Source: Dehalococcoidia bacterium (GTDB lineage Bacteria; Chloroflexota; Dehalococcoidia; UBA2979). From it: DNA of 64,000 bases. This document shows, piece after piece, positions 2,320 through 38,729 of this stretch. How positions within the stretch are numbered: the stretch's first letter is position 1; the number at the start of each line of letters is the position of its first letter. A program made the translations under genes and the position numbers. The DNA lies in the NCBI GenBank assembly GCA_036013055.1, contig DASCQM010000011.1:1132-65131 (forward strand). The letters run 5' to 3'. Under the pieces are notes generated by a model. The model searched no databases and was not told the origin of the DNA. It saw only the letters and a program-made list of their open reading frames with translations.

Positions 2320-3864
2320 TCAGGGCCGCATGGGTCGCATGCGCATGCCGACCTGCGTGCGCAGTTCGATCTGGGCGCGCTGCACCCACTCGACGGTGAG
2401 CTGACGGGTCTCGCGCGGGTCGATCAGGTCGTGCAGCCCGAATGACTCGGCACGCAGGAACGGAGTGCGGTCCTTCTCGTGCTCCGCTTCGAGTTCGAGG
2501 CGACGTTGCTCGGGATCGGGCGCGGCTTCGATCTCGCGTCGATAGGCCGCCCAGACGCCGCCCTCGATCGGGATCGAGCCCCACTCGCCTGATGGCCACG
2601 CGTAGACGGGGCCGTTGCCGTTGTGGTGCGCGCCCTGAGCGACGCCGTAAGCGCGGCGCACGATGAAGTTCACCCACGGCACCGCGGCCTGATTGACGGC
2701 AGCGAGAGCGCGCACGCCCTTGCGCAGGGTGCCGGATCGTTCTGCGTCGACGCCGACCATGAAGCCCGGTTCGTCCTCGAAGCTGAGGATCGGCAGATGG
2801 AACGTGTCGCAGAGGTCGACGAAGCGGCTCAGCTTGTCGGCCGTATCGGCGTCCATCGCGCCGCCGTTGAAGTTCGGGTCGTTGCACATGACGCCGACGG
2901 GGTAGCCATCGACGCGCGCCAGCCCGGTCATCAGGGCTCGGCCGAAGTGGGGCGTGATCTGGAAGAAGGAGCCGTCGTCGACGATGGCGGTGATCAGTTG
3001 ATCGGGGCGGAACGTGCGACGTCGATCGCGGGGGATGATCGACAGCAGTTCCTCCGTACGCCCGTCCGGTGCGTCCGCCGGCTCGGCGCGTGGCGGCAAC
3101 TCCCAGACGTTCGGCGGCAGGTAGCCGAGGAACGCCGCGATCTGACGCAGGCAATCCGCCTCGTCCTCGGCGACGTTGTCGACGAGCCCGCTGAAGGCGT
3201 GCACGCGCCACCCGCCGAGCTCCTCCTTCGACGGCGCGTGCCCGATCGCGCGTTCGACGACCGGCGGACCACCCGCGAAGAGGAATGAGGCATCTCGCAC
3301 CATCACCGAGAAGTGGCTCGCGGCGACCCTCGCAGCCACGATGCCGGCGCAGGCACCCATCGCCCCGGCGACCACCGGCACGGTGCCCAGCAGGTCAGCG
3401 TGAGGCGAGACCGGGGATCCGGCGAGCGCGCGCCCGGCGTGGCGGCTGGTGTTCGTCTTCACGCTGCCGCCGGCACCCTCGTGCAGTCGCACCAGCGGCA
3501 CCTTCAACTGCCGCGCCTGGTGTTCGATGTAGTAGCCCTTGGCGCTGCCGCCGCCGTCCGACGCGCCGCCGCGGATCGTGGCGTCCTCGCCACCGATCAC
3601 GACCTCGCGACCATCGATGCGGCCCGTGCCGATCACCGAGTTGGAGGGCGTGATCTCGAGCAAGTTGCCGTCGTCATCGCGTTCGACACCGGCGCTGATC
3701 GGGCCGACCTCACGGAAGGTGCCGTCGTCGAGCATCGCGTCGATGCGCTCGCGCAGCGTCAGTTCGTCGCGGGAGTGCTTGCGCTCGATGGCCTCAGGGC
3801 CGCCCATCGCGGCGGCGATCTCGCGCCTGCGGTTGATCTCGTCGACTTCAGGTTGCCAGGTCAT
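2320..3864 (-). CDS. acyl-CoA carboxylase carboxyltransferase (beta) subunit family protein
   Basis: 514 aa with the two-lobed carboxyltransferase pattern (DDGTFREVG, GRIDGREVVIGGEDATIRGGA, VPLVRLHEGAGG, NFNGGAMD, AYGVAQGA), as in propionyl-/methylmalonyl-CoA carboxyltransferases. Confidence 0.85.
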   Translation of the reverse strand: MTWQPEVDEINRRREIAAAMGGPEAIERKHSRDELTLRERIDAMLDDGTFREVGPISAGVERDDDGNLLEITPSNSVIGTGRIDGREVVIGGEDATIRGGASDGGGSAKGYYIEHQARQLKVPLVRLHEGAGGSVKTNTSRHAGRALAGSPVSPHADLLGTVPVVAGAMGACAGIVAARVAASHFSVMVRDASFLFAGGPPVVERAIGHAPSKEELGGWRVHAFSGLVDNVAEDEADCLRQIAAFLGYLPPNVWELPPRAEPADAPDGRTEELLSIIPRDRRRTFRPDQLITAIVDDGSFFQITPHFGRALMTGLARVDGYPVGVMCNDPNFNGGAMDADTADKLSRFVDLCDTFHLPILSFEDEPGFMVGVDAERSGTLRKGVRALAAVNQAAVPWVNFIVRRAYGVAQGAHHNGNGPVYAWPSGEWGSIPIEGGVWAAYRREIEAAPDPEQRRLELEAEHEKDRTPFLRAESFGLHDLIDPRETRQLTVEWVQRAQIELRTQVGMRMRPMRP

Positions 3865-3897
3865 AGCTCCTCCTTCACGCGCGGCTGCGCGGGACGG

Positions 3898-5124
3898 TCA
3901 TTCAAGGGCACCGGCCGCGGCGTATTCCGCGACCTCGTCAGCGCTCAGGCCGAGTATCTCAGTCAGCACCTCGTACGTGTGCTCGCCGATCAGCGGTCCG
4001 AGGCGCACGTCCGCGGGGTTGCGACGCGCCTGGATCGGGCTGCCGTGTACGAGGAAGTCGCGGCCCGAGGGGTGCGGAAGGCGGTGATAGTAGCGATCGC
4101 TCAACGTCGGGTCGTCGCGCACGAGTTCGCCGAGGGTCTGGTACGGCCCGGCGGGGATACCGCGCTGCTGGAGCGCTTCCGCCAACGGCTGCGGCTCCCA
4201 GCCGACGGTCCACGCGTCGAGCAGCGCATCGATCGCCTCCTCGTTGCTACGGCGGCCCTCGACGGTGGCGAAGTCGTCGTCCGCGAGCGCGGAGATGCCG
4301 GCGAAGTCGACGAGCGCGGCCCACTGCTCGTCTGACTCGACCGCGATCGCGCACCACGAGTCATCGCCCTCGCAGTGGTAGAAGTTGTGCGGCGCGGCCA
4401 CGTCGTCGCGGTTGCCCTTCGGCTGTGGAGCCTCGCCAGTGAGGCTGTGCTCGAGCAGGGTCGTGCCGAGCAGGCTGACCGTCGATTCGTACTGGCTGAC
4501 CTCGATGAACTGCCCTTCGCCGGTGCGGTCGCGGTGCATCAGGGCCGCCATGATCGCGATCGCGGCGTGGAAGGGATTCGATGCGAAGTCGCCGTAGTTG
4601 TGCCCCCACGGCACCGGCGCCTCGCCGGGGTGGCCGCTGACCGACTTCAACCCCGCGATGCCTGCGAACATGTCGCCGAATCCGCGCCAGGCGAGGCGCG
4701 GCCCGCTGCTCTCCATCGTCGGAATGTTCACGACAATGATGCCGCGGTTCAGCTCGCGCACGACGTCGTAGCCGATGCCCCAGCGCTCAAGCTGGTCACC
4801 CGCGAGGTTGCAGATCACGACGTCGGACGCCACGACGAGCTTCAGCAGTAGCTCGCGGCCGCCGTCTGACTGCAGGTTGAGCGTAACCGACGACTTCCCG
4901 GCGTTCGCGTCCTGGAAGTAGCCGCCGGTGTCCGGGTTGCTGTTCGCGTCGCCCGGCAGCTCGCCGTAGAGCGGCGTGCGGTTGCCGCGCCCGACGTCCA
5001 TGCGACGGCGCGACTCGACCTTGACTACCTCCGCGCCGAAGTCGGCGAGCAGGCGACCCGCCAGTGGGCCGGCGATGATCCACGAAAGGTCGACGATGCG
5101 GATGCCGGAGAGCATGCCGGCCAT
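3898..5124 (-). CDS. family III CoA-transferase (CaiB/BaiF type)
   Basis: N-terminal GIRIVDLSWIIAGPLAGRLLADFGAEVVKVE signature of the CaiB/BaiF/Frc family. 408 aa. Start ATG overlaps the stop of the upstream gene (ATGA at 5124). Confidence 0.85.
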   Translation of the reverse strand: MAGMLSGIRIVDLSWIIAGPLAGRLLADFGAEVVKVESRRRMDVGRGNRTPLYGELPGDANSNPDTGGYFQDANAGKSSVTLNLQSDGGRELLLKLVVASDVVICNLAGDQLERWGIGYDVVRELNRGIIVVNIPTMESSGPRLAWRGFGDMFAGIAGLKSVSGHPGEAPVPWGHNYGDFASNPFHAAIAIMAALMHRDRTGEGQFIEVSQYESTVSLLGTTLLEHSLTGEAPQPKGNRDDVAAPHNFYHCEGDDSWCAIAVESDEQWAALVDFAGISALADDDFATVEGRRSNEEAIDALLDAWTVGWEPQPLAEALQQRGIPAGPYQTLGELVRDDPTLSDRYYHRLPHPSGRDFLVHGSPIQARRNPADVRLGPLIGEHTYEVLTEILGLSADEVAEYAAAGALE

Positions 5125-6356
5125 CAGACGGCCCCCTGCCCGCGCAGTGCCGCGATCTGCGCCTCGGTCAGCCCAAGGCTGCCGTAGACATCGCTGTTGT
5201 GCTCGCCGAGCAGCGGCGGGCGCGCGGCTGCGACGTAGGGCGTCTCGCTGAACCGGACCGGCGCTCCGCTGTCGAGCAGCGGTGACGGCAGGCCCGGCGC
5301 TTCGACCTCGACGAAGGTGCCGCGCGATTGCAGGAACGGGTCGGCCACCAGGTCGGCCGCGTCATGCACCGGCAGCCCGATCATCGCGAAGCGCTGGATC
5401 AGCTCGACGACCTCGGCGCGGCTTCGTGTCGCGGCGAAGCGAATCATCGCCGCATCAGCGTCGGCGTGCGCGATGAACTGCGCATCGCCGAGTTCCGCGC
5501 GCAGGTCGCGCAGCCCGGCGCTCTCGCCGACGGAGTCGAGCAGCGCGAGCGCCTCGTCGACCTTGCGCCAGGCGGCAAGCAGGAAGTAGCCGTCCGCGGC
5601 TTCGTAGAGCCCGACAGGTAGACCGTCGGTGCGCGGCAGGCGCCGGCGGTCGAACCCGAACTGGTCGTGGATCGAGGCGTTCCACATCTGGAAGGAGACC
5701 AGCGCCGCGACCCGCTGCATCGCGATGTCGATCACCTCGCCGCCGCCGCCGTGCTGCGCCCCGTAGAGCGCGATCAGCGCGCCGAGCGCCGCCGCGAGCC
5801 CGCTCATCTCCGAGGCCTGCTCCGGGCCGAAGCGAGCCGGGCGCTCCTCGGCGTATCCGAAGATGCCGAGCATCCCACTCATCGCCTGCGCGATCAGGTC
5901 GCCGCCCTGCCAGTACACGCGCGGGCCGTCGAGCCCGAACGGCGTCACCGAGACGACGACGAGCGGACGCGGTCCTGCTGCCAACGCATCGAGGTCTACG
6001 CCCCACGACTGTAGCTCGCCGTTGTCGAAGACGACGTCGACGGTATCGAGCAGCCGTCGCAGCAGATCGAGGCCGCCGGGCGCGGTCGGGTCGAGCGTGA
6101 TGCCCTGCATCCCGGTGTGGTAGTGGAGGAAGTACAGCGAGGGCGCGCCCTCCTCGCTGGTCGGGACGCTCGGTGCAGGGTGCTGTGCGGAGGGCGGCGG
6201 CCGGTGGCGCTGGAGTGAGCCCCCGGGGCGTTCGAGGCGGATCACTTCAGCGCCGAGCCCCCTCAGCAGTCGCGGGCCGTAGGCGCCGGGGCCATCGACC
6301 AGCGTGAGCGCGCGCACGCCATCGAGGGCGCCGGGGGAGAGCGAGGGTACGACCAT
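5124..6356 (-). CDS. family III CoA-transferase (CaiB/BaiF type), divergent paralogue
   Basis: VRALTLVDGPGAYGPRLLRGLGAEVIRLERPGG N-terminal motif. 410 aa. First gene of a three-gene minus-strand operon. Confidence 0.75.
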   Translation of the reverse strand: MVVPSLSPGALDGVRALTLVDGPGAYGPRLLRGLGAEVIRLERPGGSLQRHRPPPSAQHPAPSVPTSEEGAPSLYFLHYHTGMQGITLDPTAPGGLDLLRRLLDTVDVVFDNGELQSWGVDLDALAAGPRPLVVVSVTPFGLDGPRVYWQGGDLIAQAMSGMLGIFGYAEERPARFGPEQASEMSGLAAALGALIALYGAQHGGGGEVIDIAMQRVAALVSFQMWNASIHDQFGFDRRRLPRTDGLPVGLYEAADGYFLLAAWRKVDEALALLDSVGESAGLRDLRAELGDAQFIAHADADAAMIRFAATRSRAEVVELIQRFAMIGLPVHDAADLVADPFLQSRGTFVEVEAPGLPSPLLDSGAPVRFSETPYVAAARPPLLGEHNSDVYGSLGLTEAQIAALRGQGAV

Positions 6357-27605: not shown

Positions 27606-28388
27606 ATGCAGAAGACCACCATCCACGAATCGATGACGTCGGCCGTCGCCGACATTCCCGACGGGATCATGCTGATGATCGGCGGATTCGCCGGCGCTGG
27701 CTTCCCGTGGAACCTGTTGACGGCGCTCTACAACCAGGGCGCGAAGGACCTCACCACCGTCTCGAACGGCGTCGGCTTCCCGTCCGACCGCGAGGACGCA
27801 CGAGGGCTCGGTGACTTCGTCGTCGATGGGCGCGTGAAGAAGGTGATCGCCTCCTTCACCGCTGCCACGCGACCCTCGCGCCCCGGTACCGCCGAGGTCG
27901 CGATCCGCTCCGGCGAGATGGAAGCGGACCTCTCACCTCAGGGCACGCTCGCCGAGCGCATTCGCTCCGGCGGCGCAGGCATTCCCGCCTTCTACACGCC
28001 CGCAGCGGTCGGTACCCGCGTCGCCGAGGGCAAGGAAGTGCGGACGTTTGACGGCCGCGACTATGTGATGGAGACGGCGCTCTTCGCCGATTACGCCTTC
28101 ATTCGCGCGTCGAGAGCAGATACAGCCGGGAATCTCGTCTTCCGACGCTCGGCACAGAACTTCAACGACCCGATGGCGATGGCTGCCGAGCACGTGATCG
28201 TCGAGGTCGAGCATCCGATCGTTCCGGCCGGCGAGATCGACCCGGACCACATCCACCTGCCGGGCGTCTACGTCGAACGCCTCGTCCAGATCCCGGAAGA
28301 CGGCATCATCCGAGTTCAGCGGCAGGCGACGCAGTCGCCGGCGGCAGCGGCGGCCGAACAGGCATCCGCCGCAGTCGCGAGAGGGTAG
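27606..28388 (+). CDS. 3-oxoacid CoA-transferase subunit A (family I)
   Basis: IPDGIMLMIGGFAGAGFPWNL, SNGVG, PQGTLAERIRSGGAGIPAFYTP: ScoA/AtoD pattern. Confidence 0.85.
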   Translation: MQKTTIHESMTSAVADIPDGIMLMIGGFAGAGFPWNLLTALYNQGAKDLTTVSNGVGFPSDREDARGLGDFVVDGRVKKVIASFTAATRPSRPGTAEVAIRSGEMEADLSPQGTLAERIRSGGAGIPAFYTPAAVGTRVAEGKEVRTFDGRDYVMETALFADYAFIRASRADTAGNLVFRRSAQNFNDPMAMAAEHVIVEVEHPIVPAGEIDPDHIHLPGVYVERLVQIPEDGIIRVQRQATQSPAAAAAEQASAAVARG

Positions 28389-28392
28389 AGCG

Positions 28393-29070
28393 ATGGCCGA
28401 TCAGCAACCACTGACACGCGAACAGATTGCCGCCGTGATCGCGCGGTACCTCGAACCCGGCTGGATGGTGAACCTCGGCGTCGGCATGCCGATGATGGTC
28501 TCCAACTTCGTCTTCCCTGAGCAGGACATCATGTTCAGCTCCGAGAACGGGCTGATCGGCTACAGCGGTGCGGCGCCCCAGGGCGAGGAGGACTGGGACA
28601 CCGTCAACGCGGGCGGGCGGCCGATGACGATCGTCCCCGGCGCAACCGCCGTGCACCACGCCGACTCGTTCGCGATGATCCGCCGCGGGCTGATCGATGT
28701 CACCGTGCTCGGTGCATACGAGGTGGCGCTCGACGGCTCATTCGCCAACTGGAAGACGAACAACGACGAATTCAGCAACCTCGGCGGCATCGGCGGCGCG
28801 ATGGACCTCGCTGCTAGTGCGCAGCAGGTCTGGGTGACGATGGACCACACGACGCGCGATGGGCAGCCACGGCTGCTGGAGCAGTGCCAGCTTCCGGTCA
28901 CGGCACCATCGGGGGCCACGCTCGTCGTCACCGACCGCGCGGTGGTCGCGGTGCGCGACGGCAGCTTCGAGCTGCTTGAACACGCGCCCGGCTTCAGCGT
29001 CGAGGAGATCCAGGCGGCGACGGGAGCACCGCTGGCGATCAGCCCGGATCTCCACCAGATCGCGGTCTAG
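28393..29070 (+). CDS. 3-oxoacid CoA-transferase subunit B (family I)
   Basis: VNLGVGMP, and FSSENGLIGY carrying the catalytic SENG Glu; GGAMDL. Starts 5 nt after subunit A. Confidence 0.85.
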   Translation: MADQQPLTREQIAAVIARYLEPGWMVNLGVGMPMMVSNFVFPEQDIMFSSENGLIGYSGAAPQGEEDWDTVNAGGRPMTIVPGATAVHHADSFAMIRRGLIDVTVLGAYEVALDGSFANWKTNNDEFSNLGGIGGAMDLAASAQQVWVTMDHTTRDGQPRLLEQCQLPVTAPSGATLVVTDRAVVAVRDGSFELLEHAPGFSVEEIQAATGAPLAISPDLHQIAV

Positions 29071-29102: not shown

Positions 29103-30059
29103 CTACTCGTCGATGAGAGCGAAGTATCGCCCGGCGGGCTGGTCCGGATCCGGTCGGTAGACGTAGCTGCCACCGGGCGTCAGCGCCTCCTCGTACAGCA
29201 CTTCCTCGCGGCCATCGAACGTGATCGACAGCGCGTAGTTCTCCGTGACCGGCAGGTAGAACTTCGCGATGCCCTTGCGATTGGTTCGCGAGGTGTTCAG
29301 ACCCGCCACCAGTACCTCGGCGCCCGCGACCGGTTGGTCGTTCTCATCAAGCACCAGCAGCCGTGCGGTGCGTGACGGGACGAAGTGGACGAGGAAGAAC
29401 TGTTTCAGCGGCCCGGCACGACCGGGAACGGACCCCGGCGGCATGTTGTCGAGCACGTCCTTCTCGTAGCCCACCCGCTTCGGCGTGACCCAGTCCGGGC
29501 CGTACTTGTACTCGAGGTACTCCTCGGGCGGGTTCGGGATGCGATAGGAACCGCCGTTGAACTCAACCTCGGCGAAGTCGGTGAAGAGGTGAATCGGGAA
29601 CGGCACGCCCGGGTAGTGGGCGATCGTGCCCTCCACGACGCGGTAGCACTGCCAGTCGATCTTGATGCGGTACTTCATGATCCGCACCGACGAATAGAGC
29701 CCGTCGTGCTCGACCTCGACGTAGCAGCCACCGGCGCGCAGCGCCTCTACCGCGGGGTCGATGTCGTCGAGGGTGAAGCCGTGCATGTCGATGATCGAAC
29801 CGAGGTCGAGGTCGTCGTCCCACTCGATCAGCGCGTGGTCGCGGTACGCGCCGAGACACGTCCCCTGCCGCAGGAAGAAGACCACGCCGAGCGCGTCGAA
29901 GATCTCCTTTACCTCGTGGAGCAGCTTCGCGGCGTTGCTCAAGTCCATCGGCGGGATCGTGCGTTCGAGGTGCAGCATCAGCGCGGAGTTCTCGGCGTCG
30001 GTCGCCTCGATGCCGTCGTCGTTGGGGTGCTCGGGAGGCGGCAGGGTCTTGTCGGTCAT
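29103..30059 (-). CDS. LicD-family phosphotransferase with a C-terminal beta-sandwich (carboxypeptidase-regulatory-like) domain
   Basis: ORF 29103..30182 trimmed to ATG 30059. FFLRQGTCLGAYRDHALIEWDDDLDLG is the LicD signature including DxD. The tail RLLVLDENDQPVAGAEVLVAGLNTSRTNRKGIAKFYLP looks like a CarboxypepD_reg-type fold. Confidence 0.75.
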   Translation of the reverse strand: MTDKTLPPPEHPNDDGIEATDAENSALMLHLERTIPPMDLSNAAKLLHEVKEIFDALGVVFFLRQGTCLGAYRDHALIEWDDDLDLGSIIDMHGFTLDDIDPAVEALRAGGCYVEVEHDGLYSSVRIMKYRIKIDWQCYRVVEGTIAHYPGVPFPIHLFTDFAEVEFNGGSYRIPNPPEEYLEYKYGPDWVTPKRVGYEKDVLDNMPPGSVPGRAGPLKQFFLVHFVPSRTARLLVLDENDQPVAGAEVLVAGLNTSRTNRKGIAKFYLPVTENYALSITFDGREEVLYEEALTPGGSYVYRPDPDQPAGRYFALIDE

Positions 30060-30076
30060 CGAGCGGCTGCGGGCGG

Positions 30077-31918
30077 CTAGAGCAGGGCCGCGAGCGCCTG
30101 CACGAGCTGGCGATTCTCCGCCGACGTGCGTGACGCGATGCGCAGGTAGCGGTCGGCCTCCGGCATGCTCTTCGCCGCGCAATCCTTAATCAGGATGTTG
30201 TGCTCGACGTAGAGGCGGCGTGCGAACTCCGGGCCGGAAAGTGGTGAACCGGTCAGCTTGCAGAGGATGAAGTTCGCGTCCGGCTCGATCGGGTCGACGC
30301 CCGGCAGCGCCAGCAGGTCCGCGTACAACTCACTGCATGCCTCGCGCGTCAGGTCGCAACTCGCGGCGAACTCGCTACGGTAGCGTCCAACGGTGCGCAG
30401 GAACTCCTCCGCGAGGCCGTTGATGTTCCAGATCGGCAACGTGCCGCGAACGGCGTTGATGAACTCGCGATCCGCGCTCAGCAGGTAGCCGATGCGCAGG
30501 CCGGCGATGCCGAAGACCTTGCTCATGCTCTTGATGATCACGAGGTTCGGAACCTCCTCGACCATCTCCTCGACGCTTCCCGGAACACCGACTCGTGAGA
30601 ACTCGATGAACGATTCGTCGACGATCAAGCGGCAGCCTGCGGGTTCGAGGCGACGCGCCAATCGCAGCACGTCGTCGCGCGTGACGGAGACTGCGGTCGG
30701 GTTGTTCGGCGTGACGACGACCGCCGTGTCGGAATTCCACTCGATCGCGGACTCGGCGAAGGCGTCGATGTCCAGCTCGAAGGTCACGGGGTCAAGCGTG
30801 AAGCGGTTCAGTCCGGCGGGGTCGATCACTTCCTCGTACTCGTTGAACGAGGGTGTGGGGATCGTCAGCCGCTCAACGAACTCGCTACCGAGGATCTTGA
30901 TCAGCTCAGCGGCGCCGTTGGCGACGGCGAGGTGGTCGGGGTTCGCGCCGGTCCAGTCGGAGACGAGGCGGGCGAGATCTTTCTGGGCGACCGGGTAGTT
31001 GGTGACGATCTCGCGCAGGTCGGCTCCGAACGCCTTGAGCATCGCGGGCGGCGGGAAGTGCATGTTGTAGAGATAGGAGTGGTCGGTGAAGCCGTAGCGC
31101 CAGTACGCCCCGTGGAGCTGCTGGATGCGGTCGAACTGCGCGTCGCCATCGAGGAAGAGGAACTCAGCGGCGTCCTGATCGCGATGATCGTCGATCTCGT
31201 ACCAGCGGCTCGCCGAGACATCGATGGCGGCGAGCTCGGTGACCGATCCGTCCGCGACAAAGTCGTGAAAGAGACTCTCGTAGTAGCGGTTGACGTGCCC
31301 CGCATCGATCGCGCTGCGCAGGCGCGGAACGAGCTGCTCTCGCAGCAATTGCTCGCGCAGCAGGTAGACGTTGACGGTCTTGAATGCATCGCTCGAATCG
31401 AAGTCCGGCCCCTGGTCGGCACCGAGGATGAAGTCGGTGACGCGATGCTCGCCGTCACGTCGCACGACGGTGCCGGAGAGCGCGGGGTGATCGGGCGCGA
31501 CGGCGGCGCTGCTGCGCGGATCCGCGAGCAGGGCCGTGATCACCTCCGGGTCGAATACGACGTCGGCCTCCAGCAGCAGAACGTCCTGATCGAGGTAGTC
31601 GCAGGCATCCCAGAGTGAGCGGATGTTGTTCGTCGTCTCGTAGTCGGGCGCCTCGACGTACTTGATGTCGACATCGGCAAAACAGGTTCCGATGCGCTCC
31701 CGGATCACCTCGCCCTTGTAGCCGATCACGATCACAGCCTCGCTGGTGCCCTGCGCACCGAGCGCCCGCAACGCGCGCTCCAGCAGCGGTTCGCCGCCGA
31801 CCTCGACCATGCACTTCGGAATCTCCGCGGTCAGCGGCAGCAGACGGTTGCCCTTGCCGGCAGCGAGGATCACAGCACGGCGAACCGGCGGTGCGGCGTT
31901 GCTCGACGCGTTCGTCAT
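30077..31918 (-). CDS. bifunctional nucleotidyltransferase (LicC/PntC-like) fused to a class I/II PLP enzyme (HisC/CobD-like)
   Basis: ORF 30077..32182 trimmed to ATG 31918. N-terminal AVILAAGKGNRLLPLTAEIPKCMVEVGG is the GxGxRL NTP-transferase motif. The C-terminal half has TPNNPT and IIKSMSKVFGIAGLRIGY (PLP-Lys motif SxSK). Confidence 0.8.
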   Translation of the reverse strand: MTNASSNAAPPVRRAVILAAGKGNRLLPLTAEIPKCMVEVGGEPLLERALRALGAQGTSEAVIVIGYKGEVIRERIGTCFADVDIKYVEAPDYETTNNIRSLWDACDYLDQDVLLLEADVVFDPEVITALLADPRSSAAVAPDHPALSGTVVRRDGEHRVTDFILGADQGPDFDSSDAFKTVNVYLLREQLLREQLVPRLRSAIDAGHVNRYYESLFHDFVADGSVTELAAIDVSASRWYEIDDHRDQDAAEFLFLDGDAQFDRIQQLHGAYWRYGFTDHSYLYNMHFPPPAMLKAFGADLREIVTNYPVAQKDLARLVSDWTGANPDHLAVANGAAELIKILGSEFVERLTIPTPSFNEYEEVIDPAGLNRFTLDPVTFELDIDAFAESAIEWNSDTAVVVTPNNPTAVSVTRDDVLRLARRLEPAGCRLIVDESFIEFSRVGVPGSVEEMVEEVPNLVIIKSMSKVFGIAGLRIGYLLSADREFINAVRGTLPIWNINGLAEEFLRTVGRYRSEFAASCDLTREACSELYADLLALPGVDPIEPDANFILCKLTGSPLSGPEFARRLYVEHNILIKDCAAKSMPEADRYLRIASRTSAENRQLVQALAALL

Positions 31919-31947
31919 CCTGAGTTGCTCCGCTCGCAGTTCGACTG

Positions 31948-33159
31948 CTACGCGGTGCTGCCAGACGCTGCCGAGACCGGCTCGTCGACGCTTGTCGACG
32001 TGAAGTACTCGCGCAGGCGGTCGATGCCCTCGTTGTAGCGGTCGTTGCAGAACGCGAGGCGCAGGTCGTGCGGGACGCCGAAGTCGGTTCCCGGCACCAC
32101 GGCGACGTGGACGCGCTTGAGAATGTCGCGCGCCAATTCCTTCGATGAGGCGAAGCCGTGGTCGTTGTTCCACTGCTCGCATCGCAGGATGGCGTAGAAG
32201 CCGCCGTCGGCCGGGATCGGCTCGCAGCCCGTGCCGGTCAGCCGTTCCGTGGTGTATTCCGCGCGGGATCGATAGGTGCTGTTCAGCTCCTCGGGGCTCT
32301 CCTCGTCCTCGAGCGCCGCGATCATGCCGTCCTGGTAGGCGGGATCGGTGCAGAGCAGCGTGTGCTGCTGGATCACGCGCAGGTTCATCTGCAGTTCCTC
32401 GGGCAGGATCGCGAAGCCGATGCGCTTCGTGTACATGCGGTAGCCCTTGGAGAAGCTGTTCGTGACGATCGTCATGTCCTTGTACTCGGGCAGCAGCGCG
32501 AGCGGCGAGTGGAACTCGTCGTAGAACATCACGTTGTTGTAGATCTCGTCGTTCAGGATGTAGGCCTGTCGATCGACGATCTCGTAGATCTCGCGCATCT
32601 CGTCGGGCGTCACGATGTTGCCGATCGGGTTGCCGGGCGAGTTGATCACGACGAGCGACGTGCGCTCCGGCGAGAAGTTGCGACGGAACGAGTCCATGTC
32701 GACCCGCTTCGTGTCGATGTCGATGTCGTAGAACTTGACCGTCGCGCCGGCCAGCGTGGCGCAGTAGAGGTAGAGCGAGTAGTACGGGCGCGGAATCATG
32801 ATTTCATATTCGGGCCCGGAGACGAGCTGGAAGATGTTGCGGAAGATCGGCGAGCTGCCGGTGTTGACGATCACCGAGTCGGCGGCGACGTCCGTTTTGT
32901 GGTTGCGGTTGTAGAAGTCCGCGATCGCCTCGCGTAGCTCGGGGAGCCCTTCCGGATAGACGCGGCGCACGAAATCGGGGTCGCGCAGCTTGTCGATCAT
33001 ACGGTCGAGGACGGTATCCGGCATCGGCATCTCGGAGACGCCGATCGTCAGCTTGAGAACGTCGGCACCCTCCTCGATCAGTTCGTCAGCCAGTTCATCA
33101 AGCACGAACATCTGGAACTCCAGATCGTTCGGCATCAAGTCTCTGATCGTGCGTGGCAC
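31948..33159 (-). CDS. class I/II PLP-dependent aminotransferase
   Basis: 403 aa. INSPGNPIGN, NDEIY, and TNSFSKGYRMYTKRIGF (PLP Lys). First gene of the three-gene cassette. Confidence 0.8.
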   Translation of the reverse strand: MPRTIRDLMPNDLEFQMFVLDELADELIEEGADVLKLTIGVSEMPMPDTVLDRMIDKLRDPDFVRRVYPEGLPELREAIADFYNRNHKTDVAADSVIVNTGSSPIFRNIFQLVSGPEYEIMIPRPYYSLYLYCATLAGATVKFYDIDIDTKRVDMDSFRRNFSPERTSLVVINSPGNPIGNIVTPDEMREIYEIVDRQAYILNDEIYNNVMFYDEFHSPLALLPEYKDMTIVTNSFSKGYRMYTKRIGFAILPEELQMNLRVIQQHTLLCTDPAYQDGMIAALEDEESPEELNSTYRSRAEYTTERLTGTGCEPIPADGGFYAILRCEQWNNDHGFASSKELARDILKRVHVAVVPGTDFGVPHDLRLAFCNDRYNEGIDRLREYFTSTSVDEPVSAASGSTA

Positions 33160-33418
33160 TCAGTGTCTCCTCGGGTGGTCAGCACCCACGATGCGCGGCG
33201 GCTGCCGCGTCGCGAACGAGCAATTCAGGTTCACCGCAGCGGACAGGCGTCGCGCAGTTGGGCGGCTCGTGCTGAGTCGGAATGGAATCGAAACACTAAG
33301 GCACAGGGCCGCAAATAGCGAGCCGAGGGCGATCCGACGCCTCCTCGCGCGAATCTACGGCGTGTACCATCGCGCCCGGCGACGGAACCAGGCGATCACG
33401 ATCAGCGAGAGGCAGAAG

Positions 33419-34753: not shown

Positions 34754-36195
34754 GTGGAGACATACATCCTTCACGAGGCGATCGGTTCAGGCAGATTCGG
34801 CACTGTCCATCGCGCGACGCATGAGACCTTCGGCATCGACCGCGCCGTGAAGTTGCTCGATGCCCGCTACACAGACGCGGCGTCGGTCGGCGAAGCCGTC
34901 CAGCGCGCCGCCGTAGAGGCGAGGGAAATCAGCCCCCAGTACGCGGTGCAGGTCTACGACTCCGGCCAGGCAGACGGGCAGGTGTGGTTCGCCAGCGAGT
35001 TGATGCCGCTCGGTGCACTCTCGCCGACGCGGGCGGAGCCAAGCTCTCAGACTTCGGGATCACCGCCACGCTCGCCGCCGAGGTCGGTGTCGACACGTCC
35101 AGCGACCCCACGCGCTACCAGCCACCTGAGCAGGGCTCCGGCGACGCCGCACGCGCCTCCGATCTCTACGCGCTGGGCAAGATTGCGCTCGAGATGTTCG
35201 GCGCCGACGCAGCGGCGCTGCCGATGGTCGAAGAGACCGACCCCGAGCTCTGGGAGCTCCTGCAGCGGATGCTGGACGAAGATCCGGGGCAGCGACCCGA
35301 GGCGATCGAGATCCGCGACGTGTTGCTCCGCTCTGCCGGCACGCCGCCGCCCGAGCCGATCTCCCACGTCGAGCGGGAGGAGCCAGAACCGACGCTCATC
35401 GACCGGCTGCGCGAGCGCGCGGCGCTCGTTGCTGTCGGTGGCGTCGTCGTCGTTGCCGCACTCGCCTCTGTGGTGGCGCTGCTCGCGGGCGGCGGCGACA
35501 CGAGCGAGACCGGCAGTGCCACGACGAACCTCGCGACAGGCGCCGGAGGAACCGGTGTCCTCACAGCCGGAGAGACCGACAGCCAGCCACCGTCCGACGG
35601 CAGCAACGACGACGGCGAGGGAGGCCCCCTCGGCATCATCCTCGATGTAGTCAGGGACGCCGTCGATCCCGACGCGGAGCCCGCCACAACCAGCACGGCG
35701 ACGCCGGTACCGCCAACGCCAACGCCAGCTCCGTTGCTACCGTTCCTCACGCCGACCCCGACCCCGACTCCTCCGCCACCACCGACCCCGACGGCGACGC
35801 CAACGCCACCACCGACAGCGACACCCACGCCAACCGCGACGCCGATCGTCGTGGTGACCGTGACGGGGCCCTGTCCGCCCATCGACCTGCGTGCGCCGGG
35901 CGTCAATCAGCCCACACAGCAGGCATCGCTGATCCTGCCGTTCACGGCCTGGGGTGAGAACGTCTGCGGGCGGGACATCGTCACCGCCTACATCGGCAGC
36001 GAGTTCTGCCGCGCGACGGTCGCCGATGACGACGGGCGCTGGTTCCTGCAGATCGAGTCCACCGACGCCTGCGCGCCGGAGGACGGCGCGGTTCTGCGCT
36101 TCGAGCTCAACCTGCAGCCGACCGCGGCAGAGGCGATCTGGCACGCGGCCGAAGCCAACGTGAACGGGCTTGTCCTCAGGGGCCCGATCGACTGA
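34754..36195 (+). pseudogene. Hanks-type Ser/Thr kinase with an internal deletion/frameshift (catalytic loop missing), TM helix, Pro/Thr linker and extracytoplasmic domain
   Basis: Frame 1 (34754-) has IGSGRFGTV, AVKLL and ...VWFASELMPLGAL. The frame then switches near 35017-35030 to the frame of ORF 34984..36195, which reads AKLSDFGIT, YQPPE, SDLYALGKIALEMF, DPGQRP. No HRDxKxxN loop exists in any frame between these parts. Confidence 0.65.
35698..35844 (+). repeat. low-complexity Pro/Thr-coding tract (ACN-CCN repeats)
   Basis: Encodes TPVPPTPTPAPLLPFLTPTPTPTPPPPPTPTATPTPPPTATPTPTATP, a linker between the TM helix and the C-terminal domain of the kinase remnant. Confidence 0.85.
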
Positions 36196-37462
36196 TCGAT
36201 CCGCGCGCGCACGTCGCAGCCGATCCGCTCGCAGGCGTAGACTGCGCAGGCTCGAAGGCACGTTCGAGGAGGGCGCCATCGACTTCGCATTCAACTCCGA
36301 CCAGCAGGCGTTTCGCGCCGACGTGAAGCAGTTCATCGCCGAGACGCTCACCGACGAGTTCCGTGAGCAGCATCGCGGGCAGGCCTCCGTGCCCGAGTAC
36401 AGCCGCGAGGCCGGTGAGCGCGGCTGGCTCGCCGTCGCCTGGCCGGAGCAGTTCGGTGGCGGGGGCTTCAGCTTCTTCGAGCAGATGATCTATATGGAGG
36501 AGATGGCGGAAGCCGGCGCCCCGCAGGAGCACCACCGCCGGGCCGTGCAGCAGGTCGGCCCGTCGATCATCCTCTCCGGCTCTGACGAGCAGAAGCGCGA
36601 GTACCTGCCCCGCATCGCCAGTGGTGAGATCTCGTTTGCGATGGGGCTGTCCGAGCCCGGTGCCGGCTCCGACCTGGCTGCCGTCTCGACTGCTGCTGTG
36701 CGCGACGGCGATGAGTTCGTGCTCAACGGGCACAAGCTCTTCACCAGCGGCGCGCACTACTCCGACTACCTCTGGGCGGTCACCCGCACCGACCCGGACG
36801 CGCCAAAGCATCGCGGCATCTCGATGCTGATCGTGCCGCTGCATGAGACGGGCGTCAGCGTGCGCCCGCTGCTCGACATGCTCGGCGAGCACCACATCAA
36901 CGAGGTGTTTATGGAGGACGTGCGCGTGCCCGCCGCAAACCTCGTCGGCGAGGAGAACCGCGGCTGGTACGTGAACGCGACGACGATGGACTTCGAGCGC
37001 TCCGGCATCGCCCGCATCGCCGGCCTCCGACGCTCGCGCAGTCGCGCCATCGAGGAGATGCGATCGATGCCAGAGGCGCGCGACCGCATCGGTCACGAAC
37101 CGCGGCGAGTACGCATCGCCGACCTCGCGATCGCGATCGAGGTCTCGCAATGGCTCGCCTACCGCGTGACGTGGATGCAGGCCTCCGCGCGCGTGCCGAA
37201 CTACGAGGTCTCGATCACCAAAGTGCTGGCAACCGAGGCCGGACAGAAGCTCTCGCACGAGATGGTCGGCTACCACGGCCCGATCGCGTGGACGCTGCCC
37301 GCCGACGGTGGTGCCGCGGACGGGCGATCGGACACCGGAGCGCCGGGCCAGAGCTGGGGCGCGAGCGTCGTCGGCGGCATCCCCGCGACGATCGCACAAG
37401 GTTCGAACGAGATTCAGCGCAACGTGATCGCCACGCGCGGTCTCGGTCTGCCGCGAGGCTAG
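36170..37462 (+). CDS. acyl-CoA dehydrogenase family protein (start codon uncertain)
   Basis: IDFAFNSDQQAFRADVKQFI..., MGLSEPGAGSDLAA, NGHKLFTSGA and MDFERSG fit the ACAD fold. The conserved N-terminus begins at ATC 36278, 4-5 nt after GAGGAGGG. TTG 36170 is the only canonical in-frame start and adds a 36-codon Arg-rich extension that overlaps the previous gene. Confidence 0.8.
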   Translation: MSSGARSTDRSARARRSRSARRRRLRRLEGTFEEGAIDFAFNSDQQAFRADVKQFIAETLTDEFREQHRGQASVPEYSREAGERGWLAVAWPEQFGGGGFSFFEQMIYMEEMAEAGAPQEHHRRAVQQVGPSIILSGSDEQKREYLPRIASGEISFAMGLSEPGAGSDLAAVSTAAVRDGDEFVLNGHKLFTSGAHYSDYLWAVTRTDPDAPKHRGISMLIVPLHETGVSVRPLLDMLGEHHINEVFMEDVRVPAANLVGEENRGWYVNATTMDFERSGIARIAGLRRSRSRAIEEMRSMPEARDRIGHEPRRVRIADLAIAIEVSQWLAYRVTWMQASARVPNYEVSITKVLATEAGQKLSHEMVGYHGPIAWTLPADGGAADGRSDTGAPGQSWGASVVGGIPATIAQGSNEIQRNVIATRGLGLPRG

Positions 37463-37466
37463 CGCG

Positions 37467-38729
37467 GTGGCAGGACCGTTCGAGGGGCTGACAATCGTCG
37501 AATTCGGCCGCTTCATCGCCGTCCCCTACTGCGCGCAGCTCTTCGCGGACGGCGGCGCGGACGTGATCAAGGTCGAGCCGATCATCGGTGACGAGACCCG
37601 CCGCAACGGGCAGATCATCGAGGGCGAAGGCCGCCAGTACCTGAACAAGAACCGCGGCAAACGCTCGCTCGCGGTCGATCTCAACGACGAGGCGGCGCGC
37701 GACGCGGTGAAGGCGCTGGTGCATCGCGCCGACATCGTGCTGGCGAACTTCCGCCCCGGCCTCGCCGAGGGGTTCGGACTTGACTACGACTCCGTCGCGG
37801 CGGTGAACCCGCGCGTGATCTACGCGGAGAACACCGGCTACGGACACGCGGGTCCGCTCGCCGATGCGCCCGGCATCGACATCACGCTGCAGGCGTACTC
37901 CGGGATCGCGCAGTTCCATCCGGACGACGGGCCGATCAGGCAGCCGAACCCGCTCACGGACTACGGCACGGCGCTGATAATGGCGTGGGGCGTCTCGACC
38001 GCGCTCTATCATCGCGAGCGCTCTGGCCGCGGCCAGAAGTTGGACACATCGCTGCTGCAGGCCGCGCTCGTGCTGCAGAACAACCATCTCAACCACATCG
38101 ATGCGATCGACAGCGGCCGCAGCGAGTTCGCCGAGTACTTGAAGACGGCTTTCGCGGACGGCGCGAGCTGGTCCGACGTGCTTGAGGCCCGCGCGGAAGC
38201 GCAGGCAGCCGTGCCGATGAACGCGTACTATGGCTTCCATCGCACGTCGGACGGCACGATCGCGCTCGGCGGCGGTAGCGTCGCGATCCGGCGGCAGATC
38301 GTGAAGTTGCTGGAGATCGAGGACCGCTGGGTCACCGAGCCCGGCTGGATGCCAGACGACGCGCGAGCGCATGCCACGGCGATGGTGGAGCAGATGTCGA
38401 CGACTCTCGCGGCACACACGACGGAGCATTGGCTCGCAGCATTCCGCGGCATTGGCGTGCCGGTGGCGCCGGTGCAGATGACGGAGCAGGTGATCGAAGA
38501 CGAGCAGGTGTTGGCGAACGGGTACGTCGTGCGGCTCGAACACGAGCTGTTGGGCGGCTACACCGTGACTGCACCGCCGGTGCAGTTCAGCGAGACCGCG
38601 CTCTCGGCGGAGAACGGGTCGCCCGTGCTCGGCAAGCACACGCGGGAACTGCTGGGCGAGGCCGGGCTCGACAACGCCGCCATCAACGCGCTGATCGAGG
38701 CGGGCGCGGCGCGGGAGCCGTCCGCGTGA
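37467..38729 (+). CDS. family III CoA-transferase (CaiB/BaiF type)
   Basis: GLTIVEFGRFIAVPYCAQLFADGGADVIKVEP signature. GTG start 5 nt after the ACAD stop. Confidence 0.85.
   Translation: MAGPFEGLTIVEFGRFIAVPYCAQLFADGGADVIKVEPIIGDETRRNGQIIEGEGRQYLNKNRGKRSLAVDLNDEAARDAVKALVHRADIVLANFRPGLAEGFGLDYDSVAAVNPRVIYAENTGYGHAGPLADAPGIDITLQAYSGIAQFHPDDGPIRQPNPLTDYGTALIMAWGVSTALYHRERSGRGQKLDTSLLQAALVLQNNHLNHIDAIDSGRSEFAEYLKTAFADGASWSDVLEARAEAQAAVPMNAYYGFHRTSDGTIALGGGSVAIRRQIVKLLEIEDRWVTEPGWMPDDARAHATAMVEQMSTTLAAHTTEHWLAAFRGIGVPVAPVQMTEQVIEDEQVLANGYVVRLEHELLGGYTVTAPPVQFSETALSAENGSPVLGKHTRELLGEAGLDNAAINALIEAGAAREPSA

Follow-up and report, generated by a model that had tools for sequence, protein, structure and literature searches.

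The subject of this study is a three-gene cassette on the minus strand of a 64,000-nucleotide stretch of the Dehalococcoidia contig DASCQM010000011.1, the whole of which we call the window. The genes encode an aminotransferase (AT), a fusion of a nucleotidyltransferase (NTase) with a pyridoxal phosphate (PLP) enzyme (FUS), and a LicD-family phosphotransferase (LicD). From gene order and sequence comparison across phyla, we argue for a conserved, horizontally mobile module. For its function, we give even chances to a self-contained pathway which would start from central metabolism, pass through phosphoserine, make a CDP-activated amino-alcohol phosphate, and pass the phospho-amine to a hydroxyl acceptor. 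The first-pass annotation, made from the letters of the window, had proposed a pathway for a CMP-activated amino-alkyl phosph(on)ate head group. That interpretation is partly supported, and comparative genomics lends further weight to the pathway that it outlined. The three genes are arranged as follows:

31948 to 33159, minus strand: AT, class-I PLP aminotransferase resembling subgroup-Ib aspartate aminotransferases (403 aa, GTG start)
30077 to 31918, minus strand: FUS, bifunctional nucleotidyltransferase and CobD-like PLP enzyme (613 aa, likely ATG start at 31918)
29103 to 30059, minus strand: LicD-family phosphotransferase (318 aa, likely ATG start at 30059)

The gaps are 29 nt between AT and FUS and 17 nt between FUS and LicD, and the coordinates of the open reading frames (ORFs) bear out the tight operon described at first. 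GGAGA is found 7 nt upstream of the GTG start of AT. Public gene callers predicted these same products on contig JAMYGI010012676, which is 99.9% identical. Pfam and NCBIfam searches returned the three domain assignments made earlier, and the motifs SFSK, LAAGKGNRL, and SMSK are present. In current annotation, the trio proteins are named only as "aminotransferase" or "hypothetical."

A one-genome-per-species scan gave 53 loci with a FUS relative at ≥ 54% identity, all of them in metagenome-assembled genomes (MAGs). They belong to Dehalococcoidia (including Mb-scale chromosomes), Gammaproteobacteria/Pseudomonadales, Acidimicrobiia and other Actinomycetota, Gaiellaceae, Myxococcota (on a 2.6 Mb contig), Limisphaerales, and Acidobacteria. 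Trio loci come from at least six phyla; MAG taxonomy may err for short contigs, but the Mb-scale contigs alone span several phyla. Searches by tblastn with the three window proteins recovered the order AT-FUS-LicD, and the flanking genes of the window were absent from the other loci. Across phyla, identity was 77–86% for AT, 65–77% for FUS, and 62–74% for LicD. When all flanking ORFs were clustered, the most frequent non-trio neighbour was a DEAD-box helicase, present in only 10 of 82 loci.

Eighty metagenome loci were added to the scan before gene order was counted. Trio-type LicD follows FUS in 41 of 43 cases (FUS at ≥ 64% identity, downstream DNA available), and AT precedes FUS in 30 of the 34 LicD-type loci for which 1.3 kb or more of upstream DNA is available. 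The loci lacking AT are L015, L050, L086, and the hybrid L089. Reciprocal look-ups from three AT homologues led back to trios. The same gene order recurs in ~ 45 independent loci, which is far beyond chance and answers the question of co-occurrence raised by the first-pass annotation. Chance adjacency of the three genes is rejected by these synteny statistics. In one locus represented by two related copies (L081/L082:7204-14845), the trio has a phage-type integrase on one side and IS3/IS240 transposases on the other, and in L171/L172, an IS110 transposase is near the trio (L171:1809-3197). The high identity across phyla, the differing flanks, and the nearby mobile elements all speak for horizontal spread of a self-sufficient unit. 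As a separate observation, the AT-less FUS-LicD locus L015 carries an extra stand-alone nucleotidyltransferase of 257 aa (PF12804) directly after LicD (L015:11039-11812).

FUS: Pfam places PF12804/PF00483 at residues 15–163 and PF00155 at residues 289–609, which gives two domains:

31151 to 31885, minus strand: N-terminal nucleotidyltransferase domain of FUS (aa ~ 12–256)
30080 to 31150, minus strand: C-terminal fold-type-I PLP domain of FUS (aa ~ 257–613)

The NTase domain contains LAAGKGNRL and the signature G21-K-G-N-R25-x8-P34-K35 (motif letters GKGNRLLPLTAEIPK), which fits the consensus GxG(T/S)Rx4-8PK with Asn in place of Thr/Ser. The terminal Lys of this consensus is essential in FrbH (K38), PntC, and YgbP (PMC6697681). 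In 60 diverse fusions of 28–63% identity, G21, G23, R25, and K35 are kept at ≥ 90%, as are the PLP lysine Lys467 (SMSK), D434, R475, and R593 of the second domain. The two domains are joined by an invariant arm, GxYWRxGFxDHSYLYxMxFPP, which is modelled at low confidence and could serve to close the PLP site.

The PLP domain shares a C-terminal Arg motif, R590/R593/R597 (R-x2-R-x3-R), with CobD; R593 and R597, like K467, D434, and R475, are wholly or almost invariant. The top NCBIfam model for FUS is CobD (TIGR01140, 183.3 bits, cut-off 290.55), ahead of hisC with 134.5 bits, both below their equivalog cut-offs. FUS is therefore CobD-like but not a CobD orthologue. Against structures, the PLP domain scores 126 bits to 6OUX (SMUL_1544, an L-serine-O-phosphate decarboxylase), 85 to CobD, and at most 76 to HisC. 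The AlphaFold model of FUS has a mean predicted local distance difference test (pLDDT) of 82. Its best whole-chain Foldseek match is the PntC-AEPT fusion (6PD1/6PD2, E 1e-27), and the PLP half matches "SMUL_1544, a decarboxylase" (6oux), CobD, and HisC. With PntC-AEPT as whole-chain neighbour and SMUL_1544 and CobD nearest to the PLP domain, the layout of an NTase plus a decarboxylase-type PLP domain claimed at first stands. SMUL_1544 governs the formation of a norcobamide whose linker is ethanolamine (cited in PMC6759758). These comparisons make decarboxylase rather than aminotransferase chemistry probable for FUS.

We consider it improbable that the PLP domain is instead a HisC/Cj1437-like aminotransferase, which would turn dihydroxyacetone phosphate, for instance, into serinol phosphate for subsequent cytidylylation and LicD transfer. 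HisC hidden Markov models (HMMs) and structures also match well, the PLP domain of PntC-AEPT is a transaminase, and Cj1437 makes serinol phosphate for a capsule (PMC11800397). However, decarboxylases score above HisC in every comparison (183 vs 134 bits; 126 and 85 vs 76 bits), and the cassette would hold two aminotransferases with no obvious need.

The CobD and SMUL_1544 homology raises another reading, cobamide nucleotide-loop chemistry, in which B12 analogues would be built or remodelled by a decarboxylase, an NTase, and a phosphotransfer reaction like those of CobD, CobY, and CobS, respectively. The reaction type of LicD resembles that of CobS, and CobY belongs to PF12804 as well. Yet the locus has neither cobamide biosynthesis genes nor a B12 riboswitch, no cob/cbi genes occur in any flank, and the partners of FUS relatives are lipid or glycan enzymes and methyltransferases. 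An Rfam scan of 28.5–34.5 kb gave only sub-threshold noise, with neither a cobalamin nor another riboswitch. The cobamide-related reading was rejected on gene context, and we rate its probability as close to nil.

FUS relatives: The NTase-PLP family comprises 532 clusters at 50% identity (E ≤ 1e-30), with more than 100 full-length two-domain representatives. Among the 41 loci at 41–63% FUS identity, 33 have a CDP-alcohol phosphatidyltransferase (PF01066) directly downstream, which is PssA/archaetidylserine-synthase-like and overlaps FUS by 4 nt in L031. A class-I methyltransferase is present in 13 of the 41; its best matches in the PDB are the plant phospho(methyl)ethanolamine N-methyltransferases (PMT) 5WP5/5WP4 at ~ 1e-11, which is weak but suggestive. 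The hybrid locus L089:3757-8280 has trio-type LicD (69%), methyltransferase, FUS (61%), and CDP-alcohol phosphatidyltransferase side by side, which suggests that one activated head group serves two transferases.

At ≤ 40% identity, the FUS relatives are found in polysaccharide (capsule/teichoic) loci with a full-length canonical LicD (139 bits), Wzx-type flippases, GT2/GT4, WecA-like and TagF-like enzymes, UDP-GlcNAc 2-epimerase, and a NusG/UpxY-like regulator, and some of these loci derive from human gut metagenomes. Further domains are fused to the NTase-PLP unit itself: a C-terminal LicD (P0494, 898 aa), a C-terminal S-adenosylmethionine (SAM) methyltransferase (five clusters of ~ 840 aa, P0409/P0460/P0474/P0481/P0493), an N-terminal GT4 glycosyltransferase (P0367, 999 aa), and a C-terminal GNAT (P0380, 780 aa, Streptosporangium, 42% identity). 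The last of these resembles FrbH plus the FR-900098 N-acetyltransferase and serves as the nearest proxy for FrbH. LicD and CDP-alcohol phosphatidyltransferase partners use CDP-linked substrates, and N-methyl or N-acetyl tailoring needs a free amine; hence, the FUS product should be a CDP-activated amino-alcohol phosph(on)ate. This supports FUS as a probable general maker of such donors, with the partner transferase setting the acceptor. The functional coupling of the trio proposed at first is likewise borne out by cross-phylum synteny, by these Rosetta-stone fusions, and by the CDP-alcohol phosphatidyltransferase as an alternative partner.

Two observations on the relatives stand by themselves. 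A second conserved cassette, consisting of a divergent class-I SAM methyltransferase, FUS homologue (41–66% identity), and CDP-alcohol phosphatidyltransferase, is present in L031, L034, L035, L036, L042, L047, L027, L088, L090, L093, and L094 and in ~ 25 further metagenome loci; its hosts are Ilumatobacter, Acidimicrobiaceae, Dehalococcoidia, and Acidobacteria. We regard this cassette as a candidate for a de novo lipid pathway by way of CDP-choline/CDP-ethanolamine. In L106, L162, and eight more polysaccharide loci at ≤ 40% identity, octopine/opine dehydrogenase (6) or ornithine cyclodeaminase/mu-crystallin (4) genes adjoin FUS and may serve further amine tailoring, e.g., N-carboxyethylation.

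LicD: The protein matches PF04991 at 38.1 bits (cut-off 22.6), over residues 58–87 only, and the NCBIfam Mf1 model at 59 bits, below its cut-off of 225. The PF04991 match is centred on the GTCLGA...WDDDLD motif, and the LicD motif quoted by the first-pass annotation, GTCLGAYRDHALIEWDDDLD, is present. Two features are relevant here:

29805 to 29819, minus strand: metal-binding motif D81-D-D83-L-D85 of LicD, aligned with WDYDVD of FKRP
29154 to 29378, minus strand: C-terminal transthyretin-like/CarboxypepD_reg beta-sandwich of LicD (aa ~ 228–302)

D81, D83, and D85 are invariant in 35 LicD homologues. A phmmer search against the PDB had FKRP as its sole match, with the Asp triad aligned. The LicD model has a pLDDT of only 70; by Foldseek, its catalytic part resembles FKRP (E 1e-8), over ~ 175 aligned columns and with a template modelling score of 0.38 on the full-length query. 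The C-terminal 75 residues of the model match the transthyretin-like domain of carboxypeptidase D, and PF13620 (CarboxypepD_reg) covers residues 236–296 at 24.8 bits, below its cut-off. The extra beta-sandwich seen at first is thus recovered by two comparisons, and it may bind the acceptor. Neither a signal peptide nor a transmembrane segment is apparent from the LicD sequence. FKRP and LicD proteins use CDP-linked donors, CDP-ribitol in the case of FKRP. By its family, LicD would transfer a phospho-alcohol from a CDP-linked donor.

AT: AT matches PF00155 at 178 bits, and among known structures, it comes nearest to the subgroup-Ib aspartate aminotransferases (1O4S, 1J32, 1BJW family). Its best equivalog score is 188 bits against a cut-off of 550, which leaves it outside the AspAT Ib equivalog. 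AT keeps the PLP lysine Lys238 (SFSK), the Asn of NSPGNP, DEIY, Arg246 for the PLP phosphate, and Arg367 (LRLAF) for the alpha-carboxylate. With the PLP lysine and both arginines in place, AT should use alpha-amino/alpha-keto acids. The distal-carboxylate Lys of AspAT Ib is missing, as GSSPIFRN replaces GGKQ, and extra conserved basic residues (R107, R241, and K245) are found next to the PLP lysine. Taken together, these features would fit a substrate with an anionic, non-carboxylate side chain. L171/L172 encode a genuine AspAT (523 bits to PRK06107) immediately before the cassette AT, and neither is therefore a redundant copy of the other. AT is confined to the marine trio clade; elsewhere, FUS has no class-I aminotransferase as a neighbour. 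A homologue with 79% identity to the window AT was also seen alone, without FUS or LicD, at L166:10001-12836.

We infer the substrate, the nucleotide, the reaction order, and the acceptor of the phosphoserine route as follows. AT would convert 3-phosphohydroxypyruvate and Glu to O-phospho-L-serine. The PLP domain of FUS, as the probable decarboxylase, would form phosphoethanolamine from it, and the NTase domain would probably turn phosphoethanolamine and CTP into CDP-ethanolamine and pyrophosphate. The two FUS steps could run in either order, as FrbH cytidylylates first and PntC-AEPT runs the PLP step first. A cytoplasmic LicD with its DxDxD metal site would then transfer phosphoethanolamine from CDP-ethanolamine to the hydroxyl of an acceptor and release CMP. 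Candidate acceptors are a membrane lipid or glycolipid, a lipid-linked glycan or conserved lipid-linked intermediate, and a soluble small molecule. Because the cassette occurs in monoderm and diderm hosts without glycan genes, the acceptor is probably common to all hosts.

The first-pass annotation had regarded a phosphonate and a phosphoserine route as equally plausible. The phosphoserine part has gained ground by the kinship of the PLP domain to phosphoserine/phosphothreonine decarboxylases, which favours a phosphate route. The phosphonate part has found no such backing, with no phosphoenolpyruvate (PEP) mutase near 131 loci. There is precedent for the decarboxylation in the Campylobacter jejuni capsule enzyme Cj1436, which forms ethanolamine phosphate by decarboxylating L-serine phosphate (PMC11800397). 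An amine of the ethanolamine type is also what the PMT-like methyltransferase partner suggests. FUS without AT, in all non-trio contexts and in four trio-type loci, fits a common housekeeping substrate such as phosphoserine.

In the phosphonate route, which we regard as unlikely, AT would act on phosphonopyruvate from an unlinked PEP mutase to give phosphonoalanine, FUS would yield CMP-2-aminoethylphosphonate, and LicD would put 2-aminoethylphosphonate (AEP) on a surface glycan or lipid. It draws on FrbH, whose PF12804 NTase acts on L-2-amino-4-phosphonobutyrate, and on LicD-like genes in phosphonate tailoring clusters (PMC6697681). The FrbH substrate is isosteric with phosphoserine, the whole-chain fold match of FUS is PntC-AEPT, the Streptosporangium GNAT fusion resembles an enzyme of natural-product biosynthesis, and AT is AspAT-like, phosphonoalanine being an aspartate analogue. 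The lone AT homologue of L166 adjoins a PehA-like phosphonate-ester hydrolase. However, the Pfam tables list no PEP mutase within ± 8–10 kb of any of the 131 loci, the flanks rather than whole genomes being covered, and the EDK..NS motif, a crude regular expression for Ppm, is absent from ~ 2 Mb of loci plus the window. Rice et al. found that some two-thirds of ppm clusters contain phosphonate nucleotidyltransferases, frequently as fusions with Ppm (PMC6697681), and their clustering with ppm weakens the phosphonate option for loci that lack a PEP mutase nearby. A mobile three-gene cassette relying on unlinked ppm/ppd would also be unparsimonious, and the PLP domain is nearest to phosphate-ester decarboxylases.

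Slightly less probable still is another phospho-amino acid as substrate: L-threonine-O-3-phosphate (giving CDP-1-amino-2-propanol), O-phosphohomoserine (giving 3-aminopropyl phosphate), or 4-phosphohydroxythreonine. The CobD HMM as best NCBIfam match and the R-x2-R-x3-R motif shared with CobD would agree with it. But phosphothreonine and phosphohomoserine are not transamination products, so AT would be idle, and 4-phosphohydroxythreonine is restricted to the 1-deoxy-D-xylulose 5-phosphate (DXP)-dependent PLP pathway. Moreover, SMUL_1544, of the phosphoserine type, outscores CobD, and the PMT-like partner indicates an ethanolamine-type amine.

Several points count against the phosphoserine route. 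Phosphoserine is normally supplied by the class-V SerC, and we know of no precedent for a class-I phosphoserine aminotransferase. AT belongs to PF00155 and lies outside the class-V fold (PF00266) of SerC; if it makes phosphoserine, it is a non-homologous analogue of SerC, and in most hosts, such an enzyme would be redundant. That AT supplies the substrate is something we only infer, and AT is missing in 4 of the 34 LicD-type loci. A PGDH/SerA-like gene is near only four loci and non-adjacent, which makes a weak link; we discounted it as support since CtaA, beta-lactamase, methyltransferase, and HPF genes intervene. In L166, the gene 46 nt downstream of the AT homologue encodes a PehA-like phosphonate-monoester/phosphodiester hydrolase (NF045661, 602 bits), and this locus may represent catabolic use of the same aminotransferase. 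With FUS below the CobD equivalog cut-off, its decarboxylase chemistry is no more than probable, and CTP as its nucleotide is taken from the partner families only. FrbH, a characterised NTase-PLP fusion, acts on a phosphonate (PMC6697681). The ppm search covered locus flanks, so ppm may still lie elsewhere in the genomes. Finally, we found no RNA-seq run containing the cassette sequence.

A bolder version of the phosphoserine route, which we offer tentatively, describes the trio as a portable, kinase-independent "mini-Kennedy" route from phosphoserine to CDP-ethanolamine. It would include an unrecognised class-I phosphoserine aminotransferase, an FrbH-like fusion enzyme, and a soluble LicD adding phosphoethanolamine to a ubiquitous acceptor (a membrane lipid, a glycolipid, or a small molecule that would become a phosphodiester), and the sister cassettes would form a de novo, choline-independent route to CDP-choline and to phosphatidylcholine/phosphatidylethanolamine. 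On this view, the two kinds of cassette would amount to a widespread but so far unrecognised part of head-group metabolism among uncultured marine lineages that are abundant.

Our literature search found no publication on the trio or its sister cassettes. In its proposed logic, the trio works like the LicC/LicD and the PntC/LicD-like phosphonyl tailoring pathways, with a fusion enzyme of FrbH layout. FrbH (FR-900098, Streptomyces rubellomurinus) has an N-terminal PF12804 NTase and a C-terminal class-I/II PLP decarboxylase-type domain like FUS. Both have the NTase signature with its catalytic Lys, and the output of FrbH is a CMP-activated amino-alkyl phosph(on)ate, as proposed for FUS. In contrast to the trio, which lacks ppm and has AT and LicD as partners, FrbH belongs to a ppm-containing phosphonate antibiotic cluster, and its product goes on to further tailoring and release instead of LicD transfer. 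PntC-AEPT (Treponema denticola Tde1415) is also an NTase-PLP fusion that makes and cytidylylates an amine-bearing phosph(on)ate, but it has a class-V AEP transaminase domain, and its pathway starts from ppm/ppd. SMUL_1544, CobD, and Cj1436, the closest characterised relatives of the PLP domain, decarboxylate O-phospho-Ser/Thr to amino-alcohol phosphates. Unlike FUS, they are stand-alone enzymes which feed cobamide or capsule amidation without nucleotidyl activation.

In LicC/LicD and FKRP/fukutin systems, as in the trio, a phospho-alcohol is activated by nucleotidyl transfer, and a LicD-family enzyme passes it to a hydroxyl with release of CMP; trio LicD shares its Asp triad and fold with FKRP. 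The trio differs in that the head group would be made de novo by PLP chemistry instead of uptake and phosphorylation, and it has no LicA/LicB. Its LicD differs from canonical LicD in being short, in a Pfam match only around the motif, in the transthyretin-like C-terminal domain, and in the lack of glycan genes nearby. The Kennedy pathway (eukaryotic/Treponema) provides a CDP-amino-alcohol donor for a phosphotransferase as proposed for the trio, and the sister cassettes, with a PMT-like methyltransferase and a CDP-alcohol phosphatidyltransferase, add a likeness to the plant/Plasmodium PMT route. Unlike the Kennedy pathway, the trio has no kinase, its phospho-amine would come from phosphoserine decarboxylation, and its cytidylyltransferase is of the LicC/GlmU-like fold family.

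The cassette is flanked immediately by CoA-transferase subunits and a nitroreductase, and upstream of AT, there is one further feature:

33160 to 33400, no strand: intergenic, presumed promoter region between the divergent AT and nitroreductase genes

This region has no sigma-70 consensus, and a promoter/terminator scan performed no better than shuffles. Flanking direct or inverted repeats, sought as insertion marks, were short chance matches only, and no compositional anomaly was seen in the window. Between ~ 1.8 and 59.7 kb of the window, the Pfam tables contain CoA-transferases, acyl-CoA dehydrogenases, luciferase-like oxidoreductases, a cytochrome oxidase operon, transporters, a Ser/Thr kinase, and a response regulator. 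They contain no PEP mutase, choline (LicA-type) kinase, glycosyltransferase, or flippase, so the first-pass annotation was right on these absences and on the unrelated flanks. The surroundings include paralogous family-III CoA-transferases, a carboxyl transferase, acyl-CoA dehydrogenases, and luciferase-like monooxygenases (2320-6356, 36170-38729, 27606-29070), and such catabolic, paralogue-rich surroundings recur around copies in Dehalococcoidia MAGs. Compared with JAMYGI010012676, the window lacks 136 nt in a Ser/Thr protein kinase gene (34754-36331, gap at about 35020-35036). The missing piece is bounded by a 17-nt direct repeat and its loss splits the gene into two ORFs, 34754-35650 and 34984-36195, which are out of frame with each other; a genuine deletion variant or an assembly artefact would explain this.

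Cassette DNA is present in seawater and marine metagenomes, and in seawater metagenomes, the trio forms hundreds of clusters at 90% identity, some with hundreds of members. If the phosphoserine route holds, bacteria would have a de novo route to CDP-ethanolamine-type donors without uptake or a kinase. A function would then be available for the large NTase-PLP family, which extends to gut Bacteroidales-like capsule loci and to lipid-type operons. Dominant deep-ocean heterotrophs would carry a phosphodiester-linked amine decoration or lipid, which bears on marine organic phosphorus.

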